From IMG/VR virus record IMGVR_UViG_648276671_000016: 18,138 nt of DNA, one strand, 5' to 3'. Both the position numbers and the translations under genes were made by a program. This DNA is from a virus (Duplodnaviria; Heunggongvirae; Uroviricota; Caudoviricetes). Below, piece by piece: positions 1 through 7,109 of this stretch. The first letter of the stretch is position 1; each line of letters begins with the position of its first letter. Below the pieces are notes generated by a model. That model ran no database searches and was not told where the DNA came from. It was given only the letters and a program-made list of their open reading frames with translations.

Positions 1-1143
1 CTATGCTGTTTTGATATCTACGATAACCCAGTCTTTACCACGATCATCATTGTATCGGTCGGTCATTTTTCTGGATTTATGGCCTAACAACTTTTGCGTA
101 TCCAGACCCTGTTCCCGATATAACCGTTCTGACAGAGATCGCTGCTCATGAAATGTGGGCGCAGTTCCTTGCTCCCATTTTATGCCACATTTTTCCCTGG
201 CCTTTTTAAAAGCCGTTGTCAGAGTATTTGCAGAAACCTGGTCTCCTCTGTTTGCTTGAGAGGTAGTGTGACGGTAATGGACCAGATATTTACTAACAAC
301 AGCATCCCTGCACTGAGATATAACTTCACGAAGGGTAATATTCAGAGCATCGCATTTCAGGTTAAGCGGAATAGCAAGTTTTGAACCGGTTTTTTCCTGA
401 GTAATGTGCAACATGTCGTCCCATATATCAGAGAATTTCAAATTGCAGATATCGCCTAAACGTTGTCCAGTGACAAGAGCAAGTAGCATCCCGCATTTTA
501 AATAGGGCTGCCGTCTGCTTACGCTGTCAAATATTGCCTGCCATTCGGGCAGTGATAATCTTTGGCGGTTTACTCGATTTCGCGGTTGTTTTGTTGCCTG
601 CGCTGGGTTAAATCCTGGCGGAACATGTCCTGCGTGTTGTGCTTCTTTGAAGACGTCGATTAACACCATTCTCACGACTTGCGCCATCCTGTTATGACCT
701 TCAGCCTTTACAGCATCAATTATTTCGGCAATATCAAGTGCGGTAATATCCTTGAGGTGTTGCATTCCACAATGCTCACGGAAAAGACGAATGGGTTTGC
801 CTTTTTGCCGATAGGAGTTGGGTCTTAGTTCATTATGTTGCAGCCTGTCCTCCTGGATAGAAATATATTTATCAAGCCATTCTGTCACCGTAATGTCTGA
901 GCGCCTGCCTTTCATTCTTTCCAGACGCTCATTGACGCTTAATATTTGTCGGGTACGTTGTTCAGCAATAATGGTATTTGCTTCAGTAGCAACTTGTTTT
1001 GCTTCATTCTCATCAGTTCCTAAGCTATGAAAACGACCGGATAGTGGATGTTTGTATTGCCAATATACCTTTCCGGTTCGCTTATCTAATTTGCAATATA
1101 AATTGGGTATAGAGATTTTGTGAGATCGGGGTCTAGCAGCCAT
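1..1143 (-). CDS. int: Tyrosine-type site-specific integrase (lambda-family phage integrase)
   Basis: 380-aa ORF. N-terminal RPRSH...PNLY and C-terminal HEQRSLSERLY / LLGHKS...MTDRYNDDRG parallel lambda Int (HELRSLSARLY, LLGHKSDTMASQYRDDRG) but the protein is clearly not lambda Int. Stop codon sits at nt 1-3; start overlaps xis by 11 nt. Confidence 0.9.
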   Translation of the reverse strand: MAARPRSHKISIPNLYCKLDKRTGKVYWQYKHPLSGRFHSLGTDENEAKQVATEANTIIAEQRTRQILSVNERLERMKGRRSDITVTEWLDKYISIQEDRLQHNELRPNSYRQKGKPIRLFREHCGMQHLKDITALDIAEIIDAVKAEGHNRMAQVVRMVLIDVFKEAQHAGHVPPGFNPAQATKQPRNRVNRQRLSLPEWQAIFDSVSRRQPYLKCGMLLALVTGQRLGDICNLKFSDIWDDMLHITQEKTGSKLAIPLNLKCDALNITLREVISQCRDAVVSKYLVHYRHTTSQANRGDQVSANTLTTAFKKAREKCGIKWEQGTAPTFHEQRSLSERLYREQGLDTQKLLGHKSRKMTDRYNDDRGKDWVIVDIKTA

Positions 1144-1795: not shown

Positions 1796-2014
1796 TCACA
1801 GTCCCCATTGTTTGTTCTTAAGTTCGATCTCCTCCTGGCAACTTGCACAAGTCCGACAACCCTGAACGGCCAGGCGTCTTCGCTCATCTATGGGATCGCC
1901 ACACTCACAACAATGAGTGGCAGATATAGCCAGGTGGTTCAGGCGGCGCATTTTTATTGCTGTGTTGCGCTGTAACTCTTCAATTTCTGATGCTGAATCA
2001 ATGATGTCTGCCAT
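1796..2014 (-). CDS. TraR/DksA-family C4-type zinc-finger protein
   Basis: 72-aa ORF containing CCEC...(14)...CRTCASC, the paired CxxC arrangement typical of phage/plasmid TraR-like proteins. Sits in the exo-xis region of the leftward operon. Confidence 0.75.
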   Translation of the reverse strand: MADIIDSASEIEELQRNTAIKMRRLNHLAISATHCCECGDPIDERRRLAVQGCRTCASCQEEIELKNKQWGL

Positions 2015-2062
2015 CTTCCATTAATCCCTGAATTGTTGGTTAATACGCTTGAGGGTGAATGC

Positions 2063-2090
2063 GAATAATAAAAAAGGAGCCTGTAGCTCC
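2063..2090 (-). terminator. Intrinsic terminator inside the leftward early operon
   Basis: Minus-strand transcript reads GGAGC-UACAG-GCUCC followed by UUUUUUAUUAUU (plus-strand stem halves at 2076-2080 and 2086-2090, A-run 2070-2075). Lies between the orf61-like and TraR-like genes. Confidence 0.4.
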
Positions 2091-2112
2091 CTGATGATTT
2101 TGCTTTTCATGT

Positions 2113-2328
2113 TCACCGTTCCTTAAAGACGCCGTTTAACATACCGATTGCCAGACCTAAGTGAGTCGGTGTGAATCCCATCAGCGTTACCGTTTCGCGG
2201 TGCTTCTTCAGTACGCTACGGCAAATGTCATCGACGTTTTTATCCGGAAACTGCTGTCTGGCTTTTTTGATTTCAGAATTAGCCTGACGGGCAATACTGC
2301 GAAGGGCGTTTTCTTGCTGAGGTGTCAT
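2113..2328 (-). CDS. Small exo-xis region protein (lambda orf61-like)
   Basis: ORF track gives 93 aa from a Met at 2394; I prefer the internal Met (MTPQQENALRSIARQ..., 71 aa) from position and recalled similarity to lambda orf61. Start choice is uncertain. Confidence 0.5.
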   Translation of the reverse strand: MTPQQENALRSIARQANSEIKKARQQFPDKNVDDICRSVLKKHRETVTLMGFTPTHLGLAIGMLNGVFKER

Positions 2329-2404
2329 TGAACAAGTCCCATGTCGGCAAGCATAAGCACACAGAATATGAAGCCCGCTGCCAGAAAAATGCATTCAGTG
2401 GTTG

Positions 2405-2596
2405 TCATACCTGGTCTCTCTCATCTGCTTCTGCTTTCGCCACCATCATTTCCAGCTTTTGTGAAAGGGATGTGGCTAACGTATGAAACTCTTCGTCTGT
2501 TTCTGCTGGTATTGGCACAAACCTGACTCCAATTTGAGCAAGGCTATGTGCCATCTCAATGCTCGTTCTTAACTCAACAGGAGATGCTTTGTGCAT
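2405..2596 (-). CDS. Small exo-xis region protein (lambda orf63-like)
   Basis: 63-aa ORF ([23 protein letters not shown]...) co-oriented between the orf61-like gene and orf60a/exo. Size and sequence match my recollection of lambda orf63. Confidence 0.55.
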   Translation of the reverse strand: MHKASPVELRTSIEMAHSLAQIGVRFVPIPAETDEEFHTLATSLSQKLEMMVAKAEADERDQV

Positions 2597-2757
2597 ACAG
2601 CCCCTCGTTTATTATTTATCTCCTCAGCCAGCCGCTGGGCTTTCAGTGGATTTTGGATAACAGAAAGGCCGGGAAATAGCCAGCCTCGCTTTGTAACGGA
2701 GTAGACGAAAGTGATCGCACCTACCCGGATATTATCGTGAGGATGCTTCATCGCCAT
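2569..2757 (-). CDS. Small exo-xis region protein (lambda orf60a-like)
   Basis: 62-aa ORF ([26 protein letters not shown]...) starting 10 nt inside the 3' end of exo. Matches my recollection of lambda orf60a. Confidence 0.55.
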
Positions 2758-3428
2758 TGCTCCCCAAATACAAAACCAATTTCAGCCAGTGCCTCGTCCA
2801 TTTTTTCGATGAACTCCGGCACCATCTCGTCAAAACTCGCCATGTAATTTTCATCCCGCTCAACCACGACATAATGCAGGCCTTCACGCTTCATTCGTGG
2901 GTCATAGTTGGCAAAGTACCAGGCATCTTTTCGTGTCACCCACATGCTGTACTGCACCTGGGCCATGTAAGCCGACTTTATGGCCTCGAAACCACCGAGC
3001 CGGAACTTCATGAAATCCCTGGAGGTAAACGGGCATTTCAGCTCAAGGCCATTGCCGTCACTGCATAAACCATCTGGAGAGCAGGCGGTACGCATACTTT
3101 CGTCGCGATAGATGATCGGGGATTCAATAACATTCACGCCGGAAGTGAACTCAAACAGGGTTCTGGCGTCGTTCTCGTACTGTTTTCCCCAGGCCAGTGC
3201 TTTAGCGTTAACTTCCGGAGCCACACCGGTGCAAACCTCGGCAAGCAGGGTGTGGAAGTAGGACATTTTCATGTCAGGCCACTTCTTTCCGGAGCGGGGT
3301 TTTGCTATCACGTTGTGAACTTCTGAAGCGGTGATGACGCCGAGCCGTAATTTGTGCCACGCATCATCCCCCTGTTCGACAGCTCTCACATCGATCCCGG
3401 TACGCTGCAGGATAATGTCCGGTGTCAT
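2748..3428 (-). CDS. exo: Lambda-type 5'-3' exonuclease (Red alpha)
   Basis: 226-aa translation ([40 protein letters not shown]...GEQWR) matches phage lambda Exo over its full length from memory. ATGA overlap with bet stop. Confidence 0.95.
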
Positions 3429-4210
3429 GCTGCCACCTTCTGCTCTGCGGCTTTCTGTTTCAGGAATCCAAGAGCTTTTACTGCTTCGGCCTGTGTCAGT
3501 TCTGACGATGCACGAATGTCGCGGCGAAATATCTGGGAACAGAGTGGCAATAAGTCGTCATCCCATGTTTTATCCAGGGCGATCAGCAGAGTGTTAATCT
3601 CCTGCATGGTTTCATCGTTAACCGGAGTGATGTCGCGTTCCGGCTGGCGTTCTGCAGTGTATGCAGTATTTTCGACAATGCGCTCGGCTTCATCCTTGTC
3701 ATAGATACCAGCAAATCCGAAGGCCAGACGGGCACACTGAATCATGGCTTTATGCCGTAACATTCGTTTGGGATGCGACTGCCACGGCCCCGTGATTTCT
3801 CTGCCTTCGCGGGTTTTGAATGGTTCGCGGCGGCATTCATCCATCCATTCGGTAACGCAGATCGGATGATTACGGTCCTTGCGGTAAATCCGGCATGTAC
3901 AGGATTCATTGTCCTGCTCAAAGTCCATGCCATCAAACTGCTGGTTTTCATTGATGATGCGGGACCAGCCATCAACGCCCACCACCGGAACGATGCCGTT
4001 CTGCTTATCAGGGAAGGCGTAAATTTCTTTCGTCCACGGATTAAGGCCGTATTGGTTGGCGACGATCAGCAATGCGATGAACTGCGCATCGCTGGCATCA
4101 CCTTTAAATGCCGTCTGGCGAAGAGTGGTGATCAGTTCCTGTGGGTCGACAGAATCCATGCCGACACGTTCAGCCAGCTTCCCTGCCAGCGTTGCGAGTG
4201 CTGTACTCAT
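3425..4210 (-). CDS. bet: Lambda-type single-strand annealing protein (Red beta)
   Basis: 261-aa translation ([66 protein letters not shown]...) matches lambda Bet end to end from memory. Confidence 0.95.
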
Positions 4211-4215
4211 CCGTT

Positions 4216-4512
4216 TTATACCTCTGAATCAATATCAACCTGGTGGTGAGCAATGGTTTCAACCATGTACCGGATGTGTTCTGCCATGCGCTCCTGAAAC
4301 TCAACATCGTCATCAAACGCACGGGTAATGGCTTTTTTGCTGGCCCCGTGGCGTTGCAAATGATCGATGCATAGCGATTCAAACAGGTGCTGGGGCAGGC
4401 CTTTTTCCATGTCGTCTGCCAGTTCTGCCTCTTTCTCTTCACGGGCGATCTGCTGGTAGTGACGCGCCCAGCTCTGAGCCTCAAGACGATCCTGAATGTA
4501 ATAAGCGTTCAT
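4216..4512 (-). CDS. gam: Gam, RecBCD inhibitor (short GamS-length form)
   Basis: 98-aa [24 protein letters not shown]...VDIDSEV corresponds to the lambda GamS portion. The in-frame upstream sequence has no start codon before a stop at 4567-4569. Confidence 0.9.
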
Positions 4513-4587
4513 GGCTGAACTCCTGAAAATGGCTGTGAAAATATCGCCCGCGAAATGCCAGGCTGATTAGGAAAACAGGAAAGGGGA

Positions 4588-4878
4588 TTAGCGATTCAGG
4601 CCGTTACCGCGTCCGTCGAGAAAAACTTCCACGAGCAAATCACGGGTATAAGTGCGCTCGATGCCGCGATGCAGATAAAGCCGTCCGCGTAAATTAGCTG
4701 ATGCAGTCCAGGTACCATCTTTGTGTTTGACCAGCATTCCTGGCATGACCGCACCTCGATTAACGGTCTGCGTTCCGTAATGTTGATGAACCATAAAAAC
4801 TCCTGCCCGTAAGCTGGGCTGCTGAACATATAGAGACTTCTGCGCGTATTCAGGCGGTGGATGGCCGCCGGTTGTCAT
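4588..4878 (-). CDS. Hypothetical protein, first gene downstream of the putative pL/OL region (N position)
   Basis: Open frame 4588-4998. The only ATG with an upstream GAGG is at 4878 (96 aa, [20 protein letters not shown]...). The 136-aa form begins at a TTG with no SD. Composition is Trp/Tyr/His/Val-containing and looks like a folded protein, unlike the disordered lambda N. Confidence 0.4.
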
Positions 4879-5035
4879 AACTAAGTCGCCTCGTTGAAGC
4901 GACTGAGGTATGAAGTGTTGAGTTGATTTCAGCTGGTCACACCGACGTTCACGCGTCCGCTTCACCCCTCGCACTCCCCGGAGCCTGCTGAAATTCAAGC
5001 TGCGGATCTAAGCGGTCATCGCAACGGTGAATCAG

Positions 5036-5150
5036 GTGGTTGCCGTATCGTTGTGTTGTTGCGATGAACTTATTTAAAACTATAGTTGTTTTATCGTCAA
5101 CAACAATAGTTGTTTTATTGGTTGTTTTAGATATAACTGGTTGTATTTAG
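5036..5150. promoter_or_regulatory. Putative OL operator cluster and leftward promoter
   Basis: Dense GTTGTT/AACAAC repeats, including the perfect inverted repeat AACAAC-AATA-GTTGTT at 5099-5114 and GTTGTT-N8-AACAAC at 5085-5104. Same half-site as the OR palindrome. A minus-strand -35 TTGACG (5095-5100) and -10 TTAAAT (5072-5077) are plausible. Confidence 0.45.
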
Positions 5151-5240
5151 GATGGATTTATTTTGTGACTTGAATCGCATAGCGATAACTGAAGCGAGGT
5201 TATGGTGGTTTTTTTAACGGTGTGTGTGATGAGGGGAGGG

Positions 5241-5268
5241 CAAAAGAAAACCCGGCACGGTGACCGGG
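5241..5268 (-). terminator. Intrinsic terminator downstream of the repressor gene
   Basis: Plus-strand CCCGG (5251-5255) and CCGGG (5264-5268) form a GC stem. On the minus strand it is followed by UUUUCUUUUG (plus 5241-5250). About 120 nt beyond the cI stop. Confidence 0.5.
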
Positions 5269-5389
5269 ATTCTTACGCCGTTAGGTAAAGATATTATTGC
5301 GGTGGCTTAATATTACTACCTAGAGCAAAGATAGGAATTAGTTCTTTACTGAATGAGCACAATGCCCAGTTGATAATTTTTAATTGGTA

Positions 5390-6079
5390 CTACCCATGCT
5401 TCCTATATGTCTGCGGCATGCTCCCAATAACCTTACCGAAGATGAACACCCGGTTCATCTCGTCTTTCTCGATCGGGTCCCACGGTGAGTAGCTTTTGTT
5501 ATCAGAGATGACCAGCAGCTTATCCTTCATCATTTGCAGGCGCTTTACATGGGCTGTGTCGTCGTACAGAAACGCATAGATACCATCACCGTCGAAAGAT
5601 TTAACTGTGATATCAACGAACAGCAGATCACCTGGTTCGATCGTTCCTGACATGCTGTCACCACGCACGTTAATGATGCGGATATTTTCCGCCTTCCTAC
5701 CATCGAACATGTGACGAGCATCGTCAAACGAGTACTCAACCGAGCGTAGAACTTCTACAAACTCACGGTTGATGACTCCCGGCCCAGCACTGACTTCTAT
5801 ATCAAGAACGTCAATCTTGAAGTATTTGGAATGGCTGACAGTTGATTGTATTGGTTGCACTGTACTGTCTGACATATTTCCAACGCCAGAAGATAACCAT
5901 TCTGCGCGCACACCCAAAGCGTTCGCGATCTCCACGATTTTAGTTGTTTGATTAGCTTTCCCTGTTTCGATTTTCTGAATAGCAGCTTGGCTAACCCCGA
6001 CCAAATCCCCAAGCGCCTTTTGTGTAAGGCCTCGCGCTAATCTGGCTTCTTTAAGTCTTTCTGAGAGTGTTGTTTTCAT
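5390..6079 (-). CDS. cI: CI-type prophage repressor (XRE HTH plus S24 LexA-like peptidase domain)
   Basis: N-terminal HTH (LSERLKEARLARGLTQKALGDLVGVSQAAIQKIETG). C-terminal autocleavage domain with Ser in VRGDSMSGTIEPGDLLFVD and Lys in HVKRL. I start at the internal Met at 6079; the 6145 ATG of the ORF track lies inside the operator palindrome. Confidence 0.85.
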   Translation of the reverse strand: MKTTLSERLKEARLARGLTQKALGDLVGVSQAAIQKIETGKANQTTKIVEIANALGVRAEWLSSGVGNMSDSTVQPIQSTVSHSKYFKIDVLDIEVSAGPGVINREFVEVLRSVEYSFDDARHMFDGRKAENIRIINVRGDSMSGTIEPGDLLFVDITVKSFDGDGIYAFLYDDTAHVKRLQMMKDKLLVISDNKSYSPWDPIEKDEMNRVFIFGKVIGSMPQTYRKHG

Positions 6080-6183: not shown

Positions 6184-6414
6184 ATGAACCCAGCTATCAA
6201 AACAGCGATCAATATCGTTGGTTCACAAAAGAAACTGGGCGCTGCTTGCGAAGTTTCACAGCAGGCCGTCTATAAGTGGCTTCACAACAAAGCAAAGGTA
6301 TCCCCTGAACATGTCGGCAGCATTGTTACGGCTACTGGTGGAGTAGTGAAGGCATACCAGATTCGCCCGGATCTTCCGAAGTTGTTTCCACACACCGAAA
6401 AGAACGCAGCTTAA
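6184..6414 (+). CDS. cro: Cro-like small DNA-binding protein (YdaS/Cro family)
   Basis: 76-aa ORF divergent from the repressor with strong RBS (GGAGG). Sequence (QKKLGAACEVSQQAVYKWLHNK) is a compact HTH. Confidence 0.8.
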   Translation: MNPAIKTAINIVGSQKKLGAACEVSQQAVYKWLHNKAKVSPEHVGSIVTATGGVVKAYQIRPDLPKLFPHTEKNAA

Positions 6415-6426
6415 ATTTCCATTTCA

Positions 6427-6439
6427 CGCTCTTTAACAA
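6427..6439 (+). promoter_or_regulatory. boxA-like element (candidate nutR component)
   Basis: CGCTCTTTAACAA lies 13 nt after the cro stop, a near-perfect match to the boxA consensus (lambda CGCTCTTA; rrn TGCTCTTTAACAA). No convincing GC-rich boxB hairpin follows within 40 nt. Confidence 0.35.
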
Positions 6440-6483
6440 TAAGCAATCAACTTAACAGTCAATTCAAACTAAAGGAGTCAATT

Positions 6484-7023
6484 ATGCAACCACTTACATA
6501 CCAACAGACTAGCGGATTTAGCCCGACTGCGGTGATAAATCGTTCTCAAACAAAACAGGTGCCAGGCCACGAAAAAATCCGTGATGTCGTCCGCGCTTGG
6601 TCGGCTGAAGATAATCAGGATGTCGTTGCCACACTCATTGTGAATGAGTATCGGGAGCAGGGCGGCGGCACCATCGATTTCCCTGATGATGTCAGCCGTG
6701 CACGCCAGAAGCTGTTCCGCTTCCTCGATAACAAATTCGATTCTGAAAAATACCGAAATAACGTGCGTGAACTGACCCCGGCAATTCTGGCGGTACTACC
6801 GCTGGAATATCGCGGCCACCTGGTTGAGCAGGATAGCTTCATGGCTCGGCTGGCTGAAATGGAAAAGGAACTCAGTGAGGCAAAACAGGCTGTCATTCTC
6901 AACGCACCACGCCACCAGAAACTGAAGGAGATGAGTGAAGGCATTGTGTCGATGTTTCGTGTGGACCCAGATCTGGCTGGTCCATTGATGGCGATGGTTA
7001 CTACCATGCTGGGGGCGATATGA
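6484..7023 (+). CDS. ydaT: YdaT-family protein (Rac-prophage YdaT-like; proposed CII functional analogue)
   Basis: 179-aa ORF with RBS AAGGAG. Motifs EYREQGGGTIDFP and LTPAILAVLPLEYRGHL resemble E. coli Rac YdaT (EYLRQGGGELP, LIPAILAILPRELRHRL). Sits in the cII position. Confidence 0.75.
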   Translation: MQPLTYQQTSGFSPTAVINRSQTKQVPGHEKIRDVVRAWSAEDNQDVVATLIVNEYREQGGGTIDFPDDVSRARQKLFRFLDNKFDSEKYRNNVRELTPAILAVLPLEYRGHLVEQDSFMARLAEMEKELSEAKQAVILNAPRHQKLKEMSEGIVSMFRVDPDLAGPLMAMVTTMLGAI

Positions 7024-7109
7024 CAGGTTCAGAAATGGCGAAAGCCGGTCTGCTGGAACAGAACCGACTTTCAGGTGCAAATCGTAACACACTCATTGCG
7101 GGAGGAATT

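Follow-up and report, generated by a model that had tools for sequence, protein, structure and literature searches.

A consensus boxA without boxB at the nutR position of an N-less lambdoid phage of Escherichia coli: an apparent remnant of a phi21-type nut site

Introduction

In bacteriophage lambda, cro is followed by the nutR/tR1 region, where a boxA (CGCTCTTA) overlaps rutA within a rut-like, C-rich stretch ahead of the cII position; the region also holds boxB (GCCCTGAAAAAGGGC), and the phage has N. In the rrn operons of Escherichia coli, boxA shields transcription from Rho, and the leader BoxA is served by NusB, NusE, NusA, NusG, SuhB and S4. The phage 21/933W-type nutR is represented by the Stx phage PA28 (NC_041935), where the cro stop is followed after 11 nt by the boxA CGCTCTTTAACA and, another 10 nt on, by the hairpin TTCACCTCTAACAGGGTGAG, an intact 8-bp boxB. 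PA28 also has a matching nutL and encodes a phi21-like N with an arginine-rich motif. The BoxA of imm21 is identical to that of E. coli and binds NusB-NusE with an affinity above that for the lambda boxA (PMC3177189).

BoxA elements also occur alone on mRNAs. The functional consensus GYTCTTTAANA was defined by mutation, with C4 and T6 being critical, and BoxA alone blocked Rho together with Nus factors in reporter constructs (PMC5725501). The two natural mRNA targets tested, suhB and the C. koseri ParE-like toxin gene CKO_00699, carry a perfect GYTCTTTAANA in an untranslated stretch tens of nucleotides before the Shine-Dalgarno (SD) sequence, with neither boxB nor N; in both, translation is repressed and Rho termination promoted. 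Every natural BoxA on an mRNA that has been examined to date acts in repression and not in antitermination (PMC5725501). Lambdoid phages without N are represented by HK022 and HK639.

BoxA elements are known, as are nut sites and lambdoid phages that lack N. We found, however, no earlier description in the literature of a consensus boxA at the nutR position of a phage that has neither N nor put. Here we describe such a site in an 18,138-nt stretch of viral DNA (IMG/VR record IMGVR_UViG_648276671_000016), which was analysed as a whole and is called the window below.

Results

The phage and its early region

The window holds the early region of a lambdoid E. coli phage. PhiR34_1 is 99.1% identical to it over 2.6 kb, and its near relatives are 4A7 and Perceval of the genus Bievrevirus. 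Chromosomal copies of the element lie at argU, adjoining intD, emrE and ybcK; on this basis the element is related to DLP12, the cryptic prophage of K-12, and is itself complete. The phage is thus a DLP12-like, Bievrevirus lambdoid without an N gene, and its prophage type is among the commonest in E. coli, ST131 strains included. Its genes are arranged as follows.

1-1143, minus strand: int
1796-2014, minus strand: TraR-like gene
2748-3428, minus strand: exo
3425-4210, minus strand: bet
4216-4512, minus strand: gam
4588-4794, minus strand: kil, the first leftward gene, 68 aa (phrog_294, 1.6e-38)
5390-6079, minus strand: cI (HTH and S24)
6184-6414, plus strand: cro of immunity type A, YdaS-family HTH (Pfam YdaS_toxin, 4e-17, and P22_Cro; phrog_35)
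6415-6483, plus strand: cro-cII spacer, 69 nt, holding the boxA and the SD sequence AAGGAG at 6472-6477
6484-7023, plus strand: gene at the cII position, YdaT family, 179 aa (YdaT_toxin PF06254, 7.7e-30; phrog_163 'CII-like', 7.5e-67)
7020-8039 and 8036-8737, plus strand: O and P
9081-12554, plus strand: inverse-autotransporter moron, 1157 aa (IAT_beta and Big_1 repeats)
12562-12580, both strands: bidirectional intrinsic terminator after the moron, between PR and Q (terminator scan)
12586-13629, minus strand: esterase-like gene (BD-FAE/alpha-beta hydrolase)
14077 (start), plus strand: ninB
14982-15344, plus strand: rusA
15478-16182, plus strand: Q (PF06323)
16235-16257, plus strand: tR'-like terminator
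16414-17157: AraC-family regulator gene (HTH_AraC, HTH_18)

A search of PDB sequences with the YdaT-like protein gave no match at E 1e-3.

A perfect boxA in the cro-cII spacer

6427-6439, plus strand: boxA RNA element CGCUCUUUAACAA on the PR transcript, rrn/phi21 type, exact and unique match

The spacer contains CGCTCTTTAACAA at 6427-6439 on the plus strand with 0 mismatches, 13 nt past the YdaS-type cro and 45 nt ahead of the YdaT-type cII analogue, and this sequence is unique in the window even with 2 mismatches permitted. The exact boxA that a sequence-only reading had placed after cro is therefore real. The functional consensus GYTCTTTAANA also has a single perfect match in the window, GCTCTTTAACA at 6428-6438, with the critical C4 and T6 intact. 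By our own estimate, a match to the 11-mer would arise by chance about 0.07 times in such a window and a match to the 13-mer about 5e-4 times. The element differs from the E. coli rrn BoxA at nucleotide 1 only, sharing 12 of the 13 positions, and by its sequence belongs to the high-affinity rrn/phi21 type. Like the rrn BoxA, it lies on a long Rho-exposed operon and would act without a phage protein; unlike it, it is accompanied by no rrn-type boxB or boxC and lies on an mRNA between two translated genes. The end of the boxA is separated by 33 nt from the SD sequence and by 45 nt from the ATG of the cII analogue.

The RNA of 6405-6500 is unfolded, with an MFE of -5 kcal/mol and a z of +0.37, and adding the 3' end of cro gave a z of -0.45, which is not significant. 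No boxB hairpin was found about 8-12 nt past the boxA in the fold of 6405-6500, as the sequence-only reading had held, whereas the controls P22 and PA28 showed GC-rich boxB hairpins 8-10 nt past their own boxA. The boxA is sense-oriented and single-stranded on the plus strand, 3' of the PR-side operators and cro, and from this gene order it is presumably transcribed.

The spacer is C-rich and G-poor, with a GC skew of about -0.4 over 6380-6500 and of -0.27 to -0.40 over 6380-6520. The region after cro is thus C-rich, G-poor and unstructured over at least about 80 nt, as in tR1. The order of cro, a boxA in a rut-like C-rich stretch and the cII position is that of lambda, from which the window differs by its stronger boxA and by having neither boxB nor N. 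The cro-cII spacer thus appears rut-like at the position of lambda tR1, with a likeness to the rutA/boxA/rutB region of that phage, and Rho-dependent termination could occur there.

Relation to the nutR of PA28

Beyond the family itself, the closest Cro relatives are in put phages and in N21-type Stx phages such as PA28: identity is 68% to UPF_BP1 (put), 67% to PA28 (N21-type) and 62% to HK639 (put). The PA28 nutR occupies the same position as the window boxA, 11-13 nt past the homologous cro stop. Its boxA is identical (12/12), while the flanks are diverged by about 30% (the spacer and boxB remnant by 20-30%) and the Cro protein by 33%; the downstream sequence is collinear and weakly similar. 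The intact boxB, the nutL and the phi21-like N of PA28 have no counterpart in the window. The probability of such a boxA being retained by chance is about 0.01-0.07, our own estimate from small numbers. The identity of the boxA amid diverged flanks hints at retention by selection, although for part of that time the boxA may have resided in an ancestor that had N.

6447-6463, plus strand: tentative remnant of a phi21-type boxB, TCAAC TTAACAG TCAAT

A type-A variant longer by 12 nt, found in strains W4 and 2016C-3878 and making up about 3% of the copies, is collinear with PA28 through boxB: TCAACT-TAACAGACTGA aligns with TCACCTCTAACAGGGTGA at 27 of 38 identical positions. With the boxA excluded, this similarity is marginal (p about 0.055), and the stem pairs of boxB are lost. 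The window is without the 12 nt (TTAACAGACTGA) of the longer variant, the gap lying between direct TTAACAG repeats. On these alignments the element looks like the remnant of a phi21-type nutR whose boxB decayed in an N-less phage and whose boxA is still perfect.

The 12-nt indel TTAACAGACTGA, at the equivalent of window 6451/6452, creates the hairpin GACUG-AUUAA-CAGUC (5 bp, 5-nt loop). It lies 21 nt past the boxA and coincides with the region aligned to the phi21-type boxB.

Distribution of the boxA and immunity types

Of 5426 complete E. coli genomes, 1524 (about 28%) carry the module of cro and boxA, always within the same N-less backbone, and in 1377 of the 1524 it is at least 99% identical over 351 nt. 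Because most copies are this similar, an unchanged boxA within the family is weak evidence of selection.

We surveyed 85 loci, namely those encoding close relatives of the cII analogue, and found two cro types only. In type A, the boxA was unchanged in all 52 loci examined, 56 nt ahead of the ATG. In type B, which comprises about 33 of the 85 loci and includes 4A7 and Perceval, a different cro is followed by a 30-nt spacer without a boxA, while the PL leader, kil, the cII analogue, O and P are the same as in type A. The boxA is tied to one cro allele and its immunity module, not to the phage family, which is independent of it. Since type-B phages are viable without it, any function of the boxA is either dispensable or specific to the immunity module.

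Type-B phages and HK639 carry a GC-rich hairpin at the cro stop. In type B (4A7, locus 4790-4830), a 5-bp GC hairpin, GCCGC-CUAAUCU-GCGGC, has the UAA stop of cro in its loop. In HK639 (locus 310-335), the corresponding hairpin is GCCGC-UUAACG-GCGGC; the stem is conserved relative to type B and the loop varies.

Partner systems and the PL leader

Among the submitted ORFs, both candidates at the N position included, none matched an N family in Pfam or PHROG, and Rfam at gathering thresholds returned nothing in the window. The first leftward gene, which the earlier reading had considered unlike N, is kil. PGAP and the 4A7 annotation agree on 68 aa for Kil, and longer ORFs are broken by indels upstream of 4794. 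A 77-aa ORF at 4596-4829 (minus strand), hypothetical in PhiR34_1, matches no family and lies across the leader and kil in a different frame; it is probably a mis-call.

An HK022-type put RNA was rejected. A covariance model of 8 sequences (HK022 L/R, HK639, CobraSix, PdC23, phiEt88 L/R and S9-5), run with filters off, gave no match in either leader, its best hit in the window (E 0.64) being outside the leaders, and blastn-short for put found nothing. The window phage thus resembles HK022 and HK639 in being an N-less lambdoid and has put phages among its Cro relatives, but the put RNA itself is absent. In the HK639 record, an 'M3-like RNA' directly follows the YdaT-like cII gene (locus 911-970); in the window, where the cII analogue and O overlap, there is no space for such an RNA.

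The leftward early region contains the following elements.

5072-5130, minus strand: PL and operators
5072-5100, minus strand: PL promoter-like site amid operator repeats, read from the sequence (-35 TTGACG at 5100-5095, 17 nt, -10 TTAAAT at 5077-5072)
4795-5065, minus strand: untranslated PL leader ahead of kil, about 270 nt

The promoter-like site is accompanied by the operator repeats D4, I2 and I6, and homology to phages of other immunity begins at about 5064, the predicted +1 of PL. Several immunity types have the leader in common, and 2235 of 5426 complete E. coli genomes (41%) carry it at 95-100% conservation. Its core (4955-4926) is invariant in the 22 distinct variants compared, all of them at least 95% identical; variation was too little for covariation analysis, and only the hairpin at 4913-4875 (minus strand) is clearly non-random. 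This hairpin has a z of -6.3, and the stem variants seen all still pair via G.U, whereas the leader as a whole folds no better than its shuffles (z -1.2 to -0.4). The hairpin sequesters an upstream AUG at 4878 and stands ahead of kil in HK225 and phi80 as well; it may be an RNase III site or a site of translational control for the toxic kil.

A nutL was sought in this leader and none matched. The boxA-like sequence that the sequence-only reading had noticed on the left is indeed present in the leader, at 5014-5007 on the minus strand (CGCTTAGA), but as a boxA it fails: CGCUUAGA violates the consensus at the critical C4 and T6. Similarity of the leader to a decayed P22- or phi21-type nutL, judged against the nutL of P22 and of PA28, had a p of 0.06-0.12 and is not claimed. 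The left leader and the right spacer have a 15-mer (CGCAGCTTGAATTTC versus CGCAGCTTAAATTTC) and a 13-mer in common in collinear order, with a chained score that ranks first of about 3500 windows, albeit narrowly (23.58 versus 23.44). We take this nutL/nutR-like pair of motifs as chance, as type-B phages keep the leader without the right-side motifs.

A hidden N was also considered and rejected. In the frame of kil, a leader ORF starting at GUG 4965 with a good SD sequence encodes MKRTRERRCDQLK..., which resembles the arginine-rich motif of N. No other ORF near the N position has an arginine-rich N-terminus. Of about 55 family loci, 19 have this ORF closed by a stop at codon 21, the viable phages PhiR34_1 and IdasGreatGrand among them; in other loci it is frameshifted, and in distant Kil homologues it is not conserved. 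It is probably non-coding, or it may encode a 20-aa micropeptide. In the window, the arginine-rich, N-like peptide MKRTRERRCDQLKSTQHFIP (4905-4965, minus strand) is fused in frame to Kil, and a C-to-T change at 4905 shortens it to 20 aa in about a third of the relatives.

Terminators and a putative route to Q

2064-2092, minus strand: intrinsic terminator of the leftward operon, stem 2092-2074 followed by TTTTTATTATT (terminator scan)
13895-13923, plus strand: promoter-like site upstream of ninB...Q (-35 TTGATT, 17 nt, -10 CATAAT)

The terminator reported earlier in the leftward operon is present, but the read-through system it was thought to imply does not follow from it. It lies between orf61 and ea22, which we take to be the position of lambda tL3, within 2.8 kb of DNA (1819-4594) that match lambda 30418-33193 at 97.5% identity; it was therefore inherited from an N-using phage and gives no sign of a local read-through system. 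On the right, PR transcripts reaching ninB would have to pass the strong bidirectional terminator at 12562-12580 and then run antisense to the esterase-like gene for about 1 kb.

The promoter-like site before ninB includes a perfect YdaT box, TTGATT-ATGAAT-AATCAA at 13895-13912, which doubles as the -35. TTGATT-N6-AATCAA is the operator of the YdaT proteins of CP-933P and Rac (PMC9986795, PMC11879457). In 5 phages the half-sites and the -10 are invariant and the 6-nt spacer is variable. The homology blocks upstream of ninB begin exactly at 13894: the put phages HK639 and CobraSix have this module in common with the window phage from the YdaT box on, while homology to phi80 ('IR4') and HK225 starts at about 13936, about 40 nt downstream and beyond the box and the -10. 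YdaT-family proteins were confirmed in the window phage and in CobraSix. Two conserved hairpins follow the site, CACCGGAG...CTCCGGTG (13929-13953) and GATGCAGAAA...TTTTTGCATC (about 14017-14048). From its sequence, the site at 13895-13923 looks like an internal promoter of ninB...Q under the control of the cII analogue, with a predicted start near 13930, and it may provide an N-independent route to Q, which would lessen the need for read-through from PR.

In the cro-cII spacer, TTAACA-N6-AATCAA at 6433-6450 agrees with the YdaT box at 9 of 12 positions, and AATCAA/AGTCAA half-site-like repeats occur throughout the spacer.

Discussion

The boxA described here is the single perfect BoxA of a window in which N, boxB and put were not found. 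We tentatively regard it as the boxA half of a phi21/933W-type nutR that may now serve to recruit host Nus factors only, limiting Rho locally. The immunity module of cI and the YdaS-type cro would have brought the boxA into an N-less lambdoid backbone, where its boxB partner would have decayed and, in the window, been partly deleted. On the nascent PR transcript, the boxA would bind NusB-S10 and nucleate a host-only Nus complex with NusA, NusG and SuhB on RNA polymerase, and this complex would limit Rho-dependent termination locally, such that the cII analogue, O and P could be transcribed without N. A high-affinity E. coli-type BoxA on unstructured RNA is expected to bind NusB-S10, and from the published properties of this sequence NusB/E should bind here. 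An anti-Rho outcome at the cro-cII spacer would most likely be local in its consequence. The setting, with a rut-like spacer and a boxA 33 nt before the SD sequence, fits both protection from Rho and repression.

The sequence-only reading had proposed that antitermination in this phage is non-canonical or uses the boxA alone. Its premises hold in that N, boxB, put and any Rfam family were not detected and the boxA is of the high-affinity type, but the boxA is missing in type B and a promoter-like site precedes ninB-Q. The boxA is unlikely to serve processive antitermination across the whole phage; host factors may have an effect through the boxA alone, which would probably be local.

The element could instead be a neutral relic, a leftover of the ancestral nutR without a role, unmutated since the module spread recently and is near-clonal. 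Taken by itself this is somewhat unlikely, and it is nearly as likely as a recruitment of Nus factors from the host alone, with a local effect on Rho or on translation of the cII analogue. The near-identity of the module in most of its copies (1377 of 1524), the type-B relatives that manage without a boxA, the decayed or deleted boxB and the absence of N are all what a relic would leave behind. It accords less well with a boxA that equals that of PA28 at 12/12 positions, against differences of 20-30% in the spacer and boxB remnant and of 33% in Cro. Moreover, a consensus BoxA that lies exposed on an early RNA made in abundance would be expected to bind NusB/E regardless (PMC3177189), and some effect should follow.

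Repression of the suhB type is quite unlikely. By analogy, Nus factors bound to the boxA would loop the RNA to the polymerase, block the SD sequence of the cII analogue and expose the transcript to Rho, which would tune cII, O and P to the host supply of Nus factors and hence to growth rate. The distances of 33 nt to the SD sequence and 45 nt to the ATG would suit it, as repression is effective up to 100 nt and both natural targets tested are repressed (PMC5725501), and the spacer and the start of the cII-analogue gene are rut-like. However, reduced expression of O and P after induction looks costly, and type-B phages have no boxA. The consensus match also lies 56-46 nt upstream of the start codon, 6 nt beyond the 50-nt search window of the published survey, and the E. 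coli list in part 2 of its supplement, the portion considered here, has no entry for this site among its putative BoxA targets (PMC5725501).

A far broader reading would take this prophage type, present in about 30-40% of E. coli genomes, as running both early operons without a phage antiterminator protein: on the right, an rrn-type BoxA would borrow the host's rRNA antitermination, and on the left, the 270-nt PL leader would be a new cis-acting RNA, together forming a host-only or RNA-only alternative to N and put. We consider this improbable.

Very improbable is a non-canonical processive system in which the boxA is one arm and works with some further phage factor or with an RNA acting in cis, for example the PL leader, carrying polymerase through the terminators at 2092-2074 and 12562-12580. 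Complexes of the rrn boxA type are weak against intrinsic terminators, which speaks against such a system. Intrinsic terminators in both early operons, the absence of N and put, and the conservation of the 270-nt leader in phages of different immunity, with a presence in 41% of E. coli genomes, would make it attractive. Yet type-B phages with the same leader have no boxA, the similarity of the left leader to the right spacer is at chance level with a top rank by a negligible margin, and the leader as a whole folds no better than shuffles. Furthermore, the arginine-rich leader ORF is interrupted in a good part of the loci (19 of about 55, viable phages included), the left terminator is lambda-inherited, and a conserved internal promoter-like site stands before ninB-Q.

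It is extremely improbable that the site is a DNA-level element, either a YdaT operator or a PRE-like leftward promoter, with a coincidental likeness to boxA: YdaT does bind between ydaS and ydaT in CP-933P and Rac (PMC9986795, PMC11879457), and the spacer holds the 9/12 match and the half-site-like repeats, but the imperfect YdaT-like site overlaps only the last 7 nt of the boxA, and the 13-nt boxA identity and the match to the boxA in the nutR of a related immunity region, homologous to this one, would be left unexplained.

If the boxA is active in host-only Nus recruitment, no earlier case would have been shown of a phage early operon that engages the Nus complex of its host in the absence of N, and the lysis-lysogeny circuitry of cro, the cII analogue, O and P would be linked directly to the host supply of Nus factors. 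If it is inert, it is an ordinary evolutionary remnant. The conserved PL leader and the putative YdaT-box promoter are the more intriguing loose ends. The loci form a natural decay series, from the intact nutR of PA28 through the broken boxB of the W4 variant and the deleted boxB of the window to type B without a boxA, showing how an antitermination site decays after the loss of N and what a BoxA does alone.

Several features of the surrounding map deserve mention. The gap between the cI terminator (5268-5251) and PL, window 5135-5389, is an insertion hotspot in relatives, where genes for a HipA-like kinase, SIR2, GevT/GevA and an ASCH-domain protein are inserted, and is empty in the window. 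An AraC-family gene (16414-17157) lies just 3' of the region of Q and the tR'-like terminator, at the start of the late operon. Between P and ninB, the window carries two morons (9081-13629), an invasin-like adhesin and an opposite-strand hydrolase with the bidirectional terminator between them; in PhiR34_1, emrE-ybcK takes their place.
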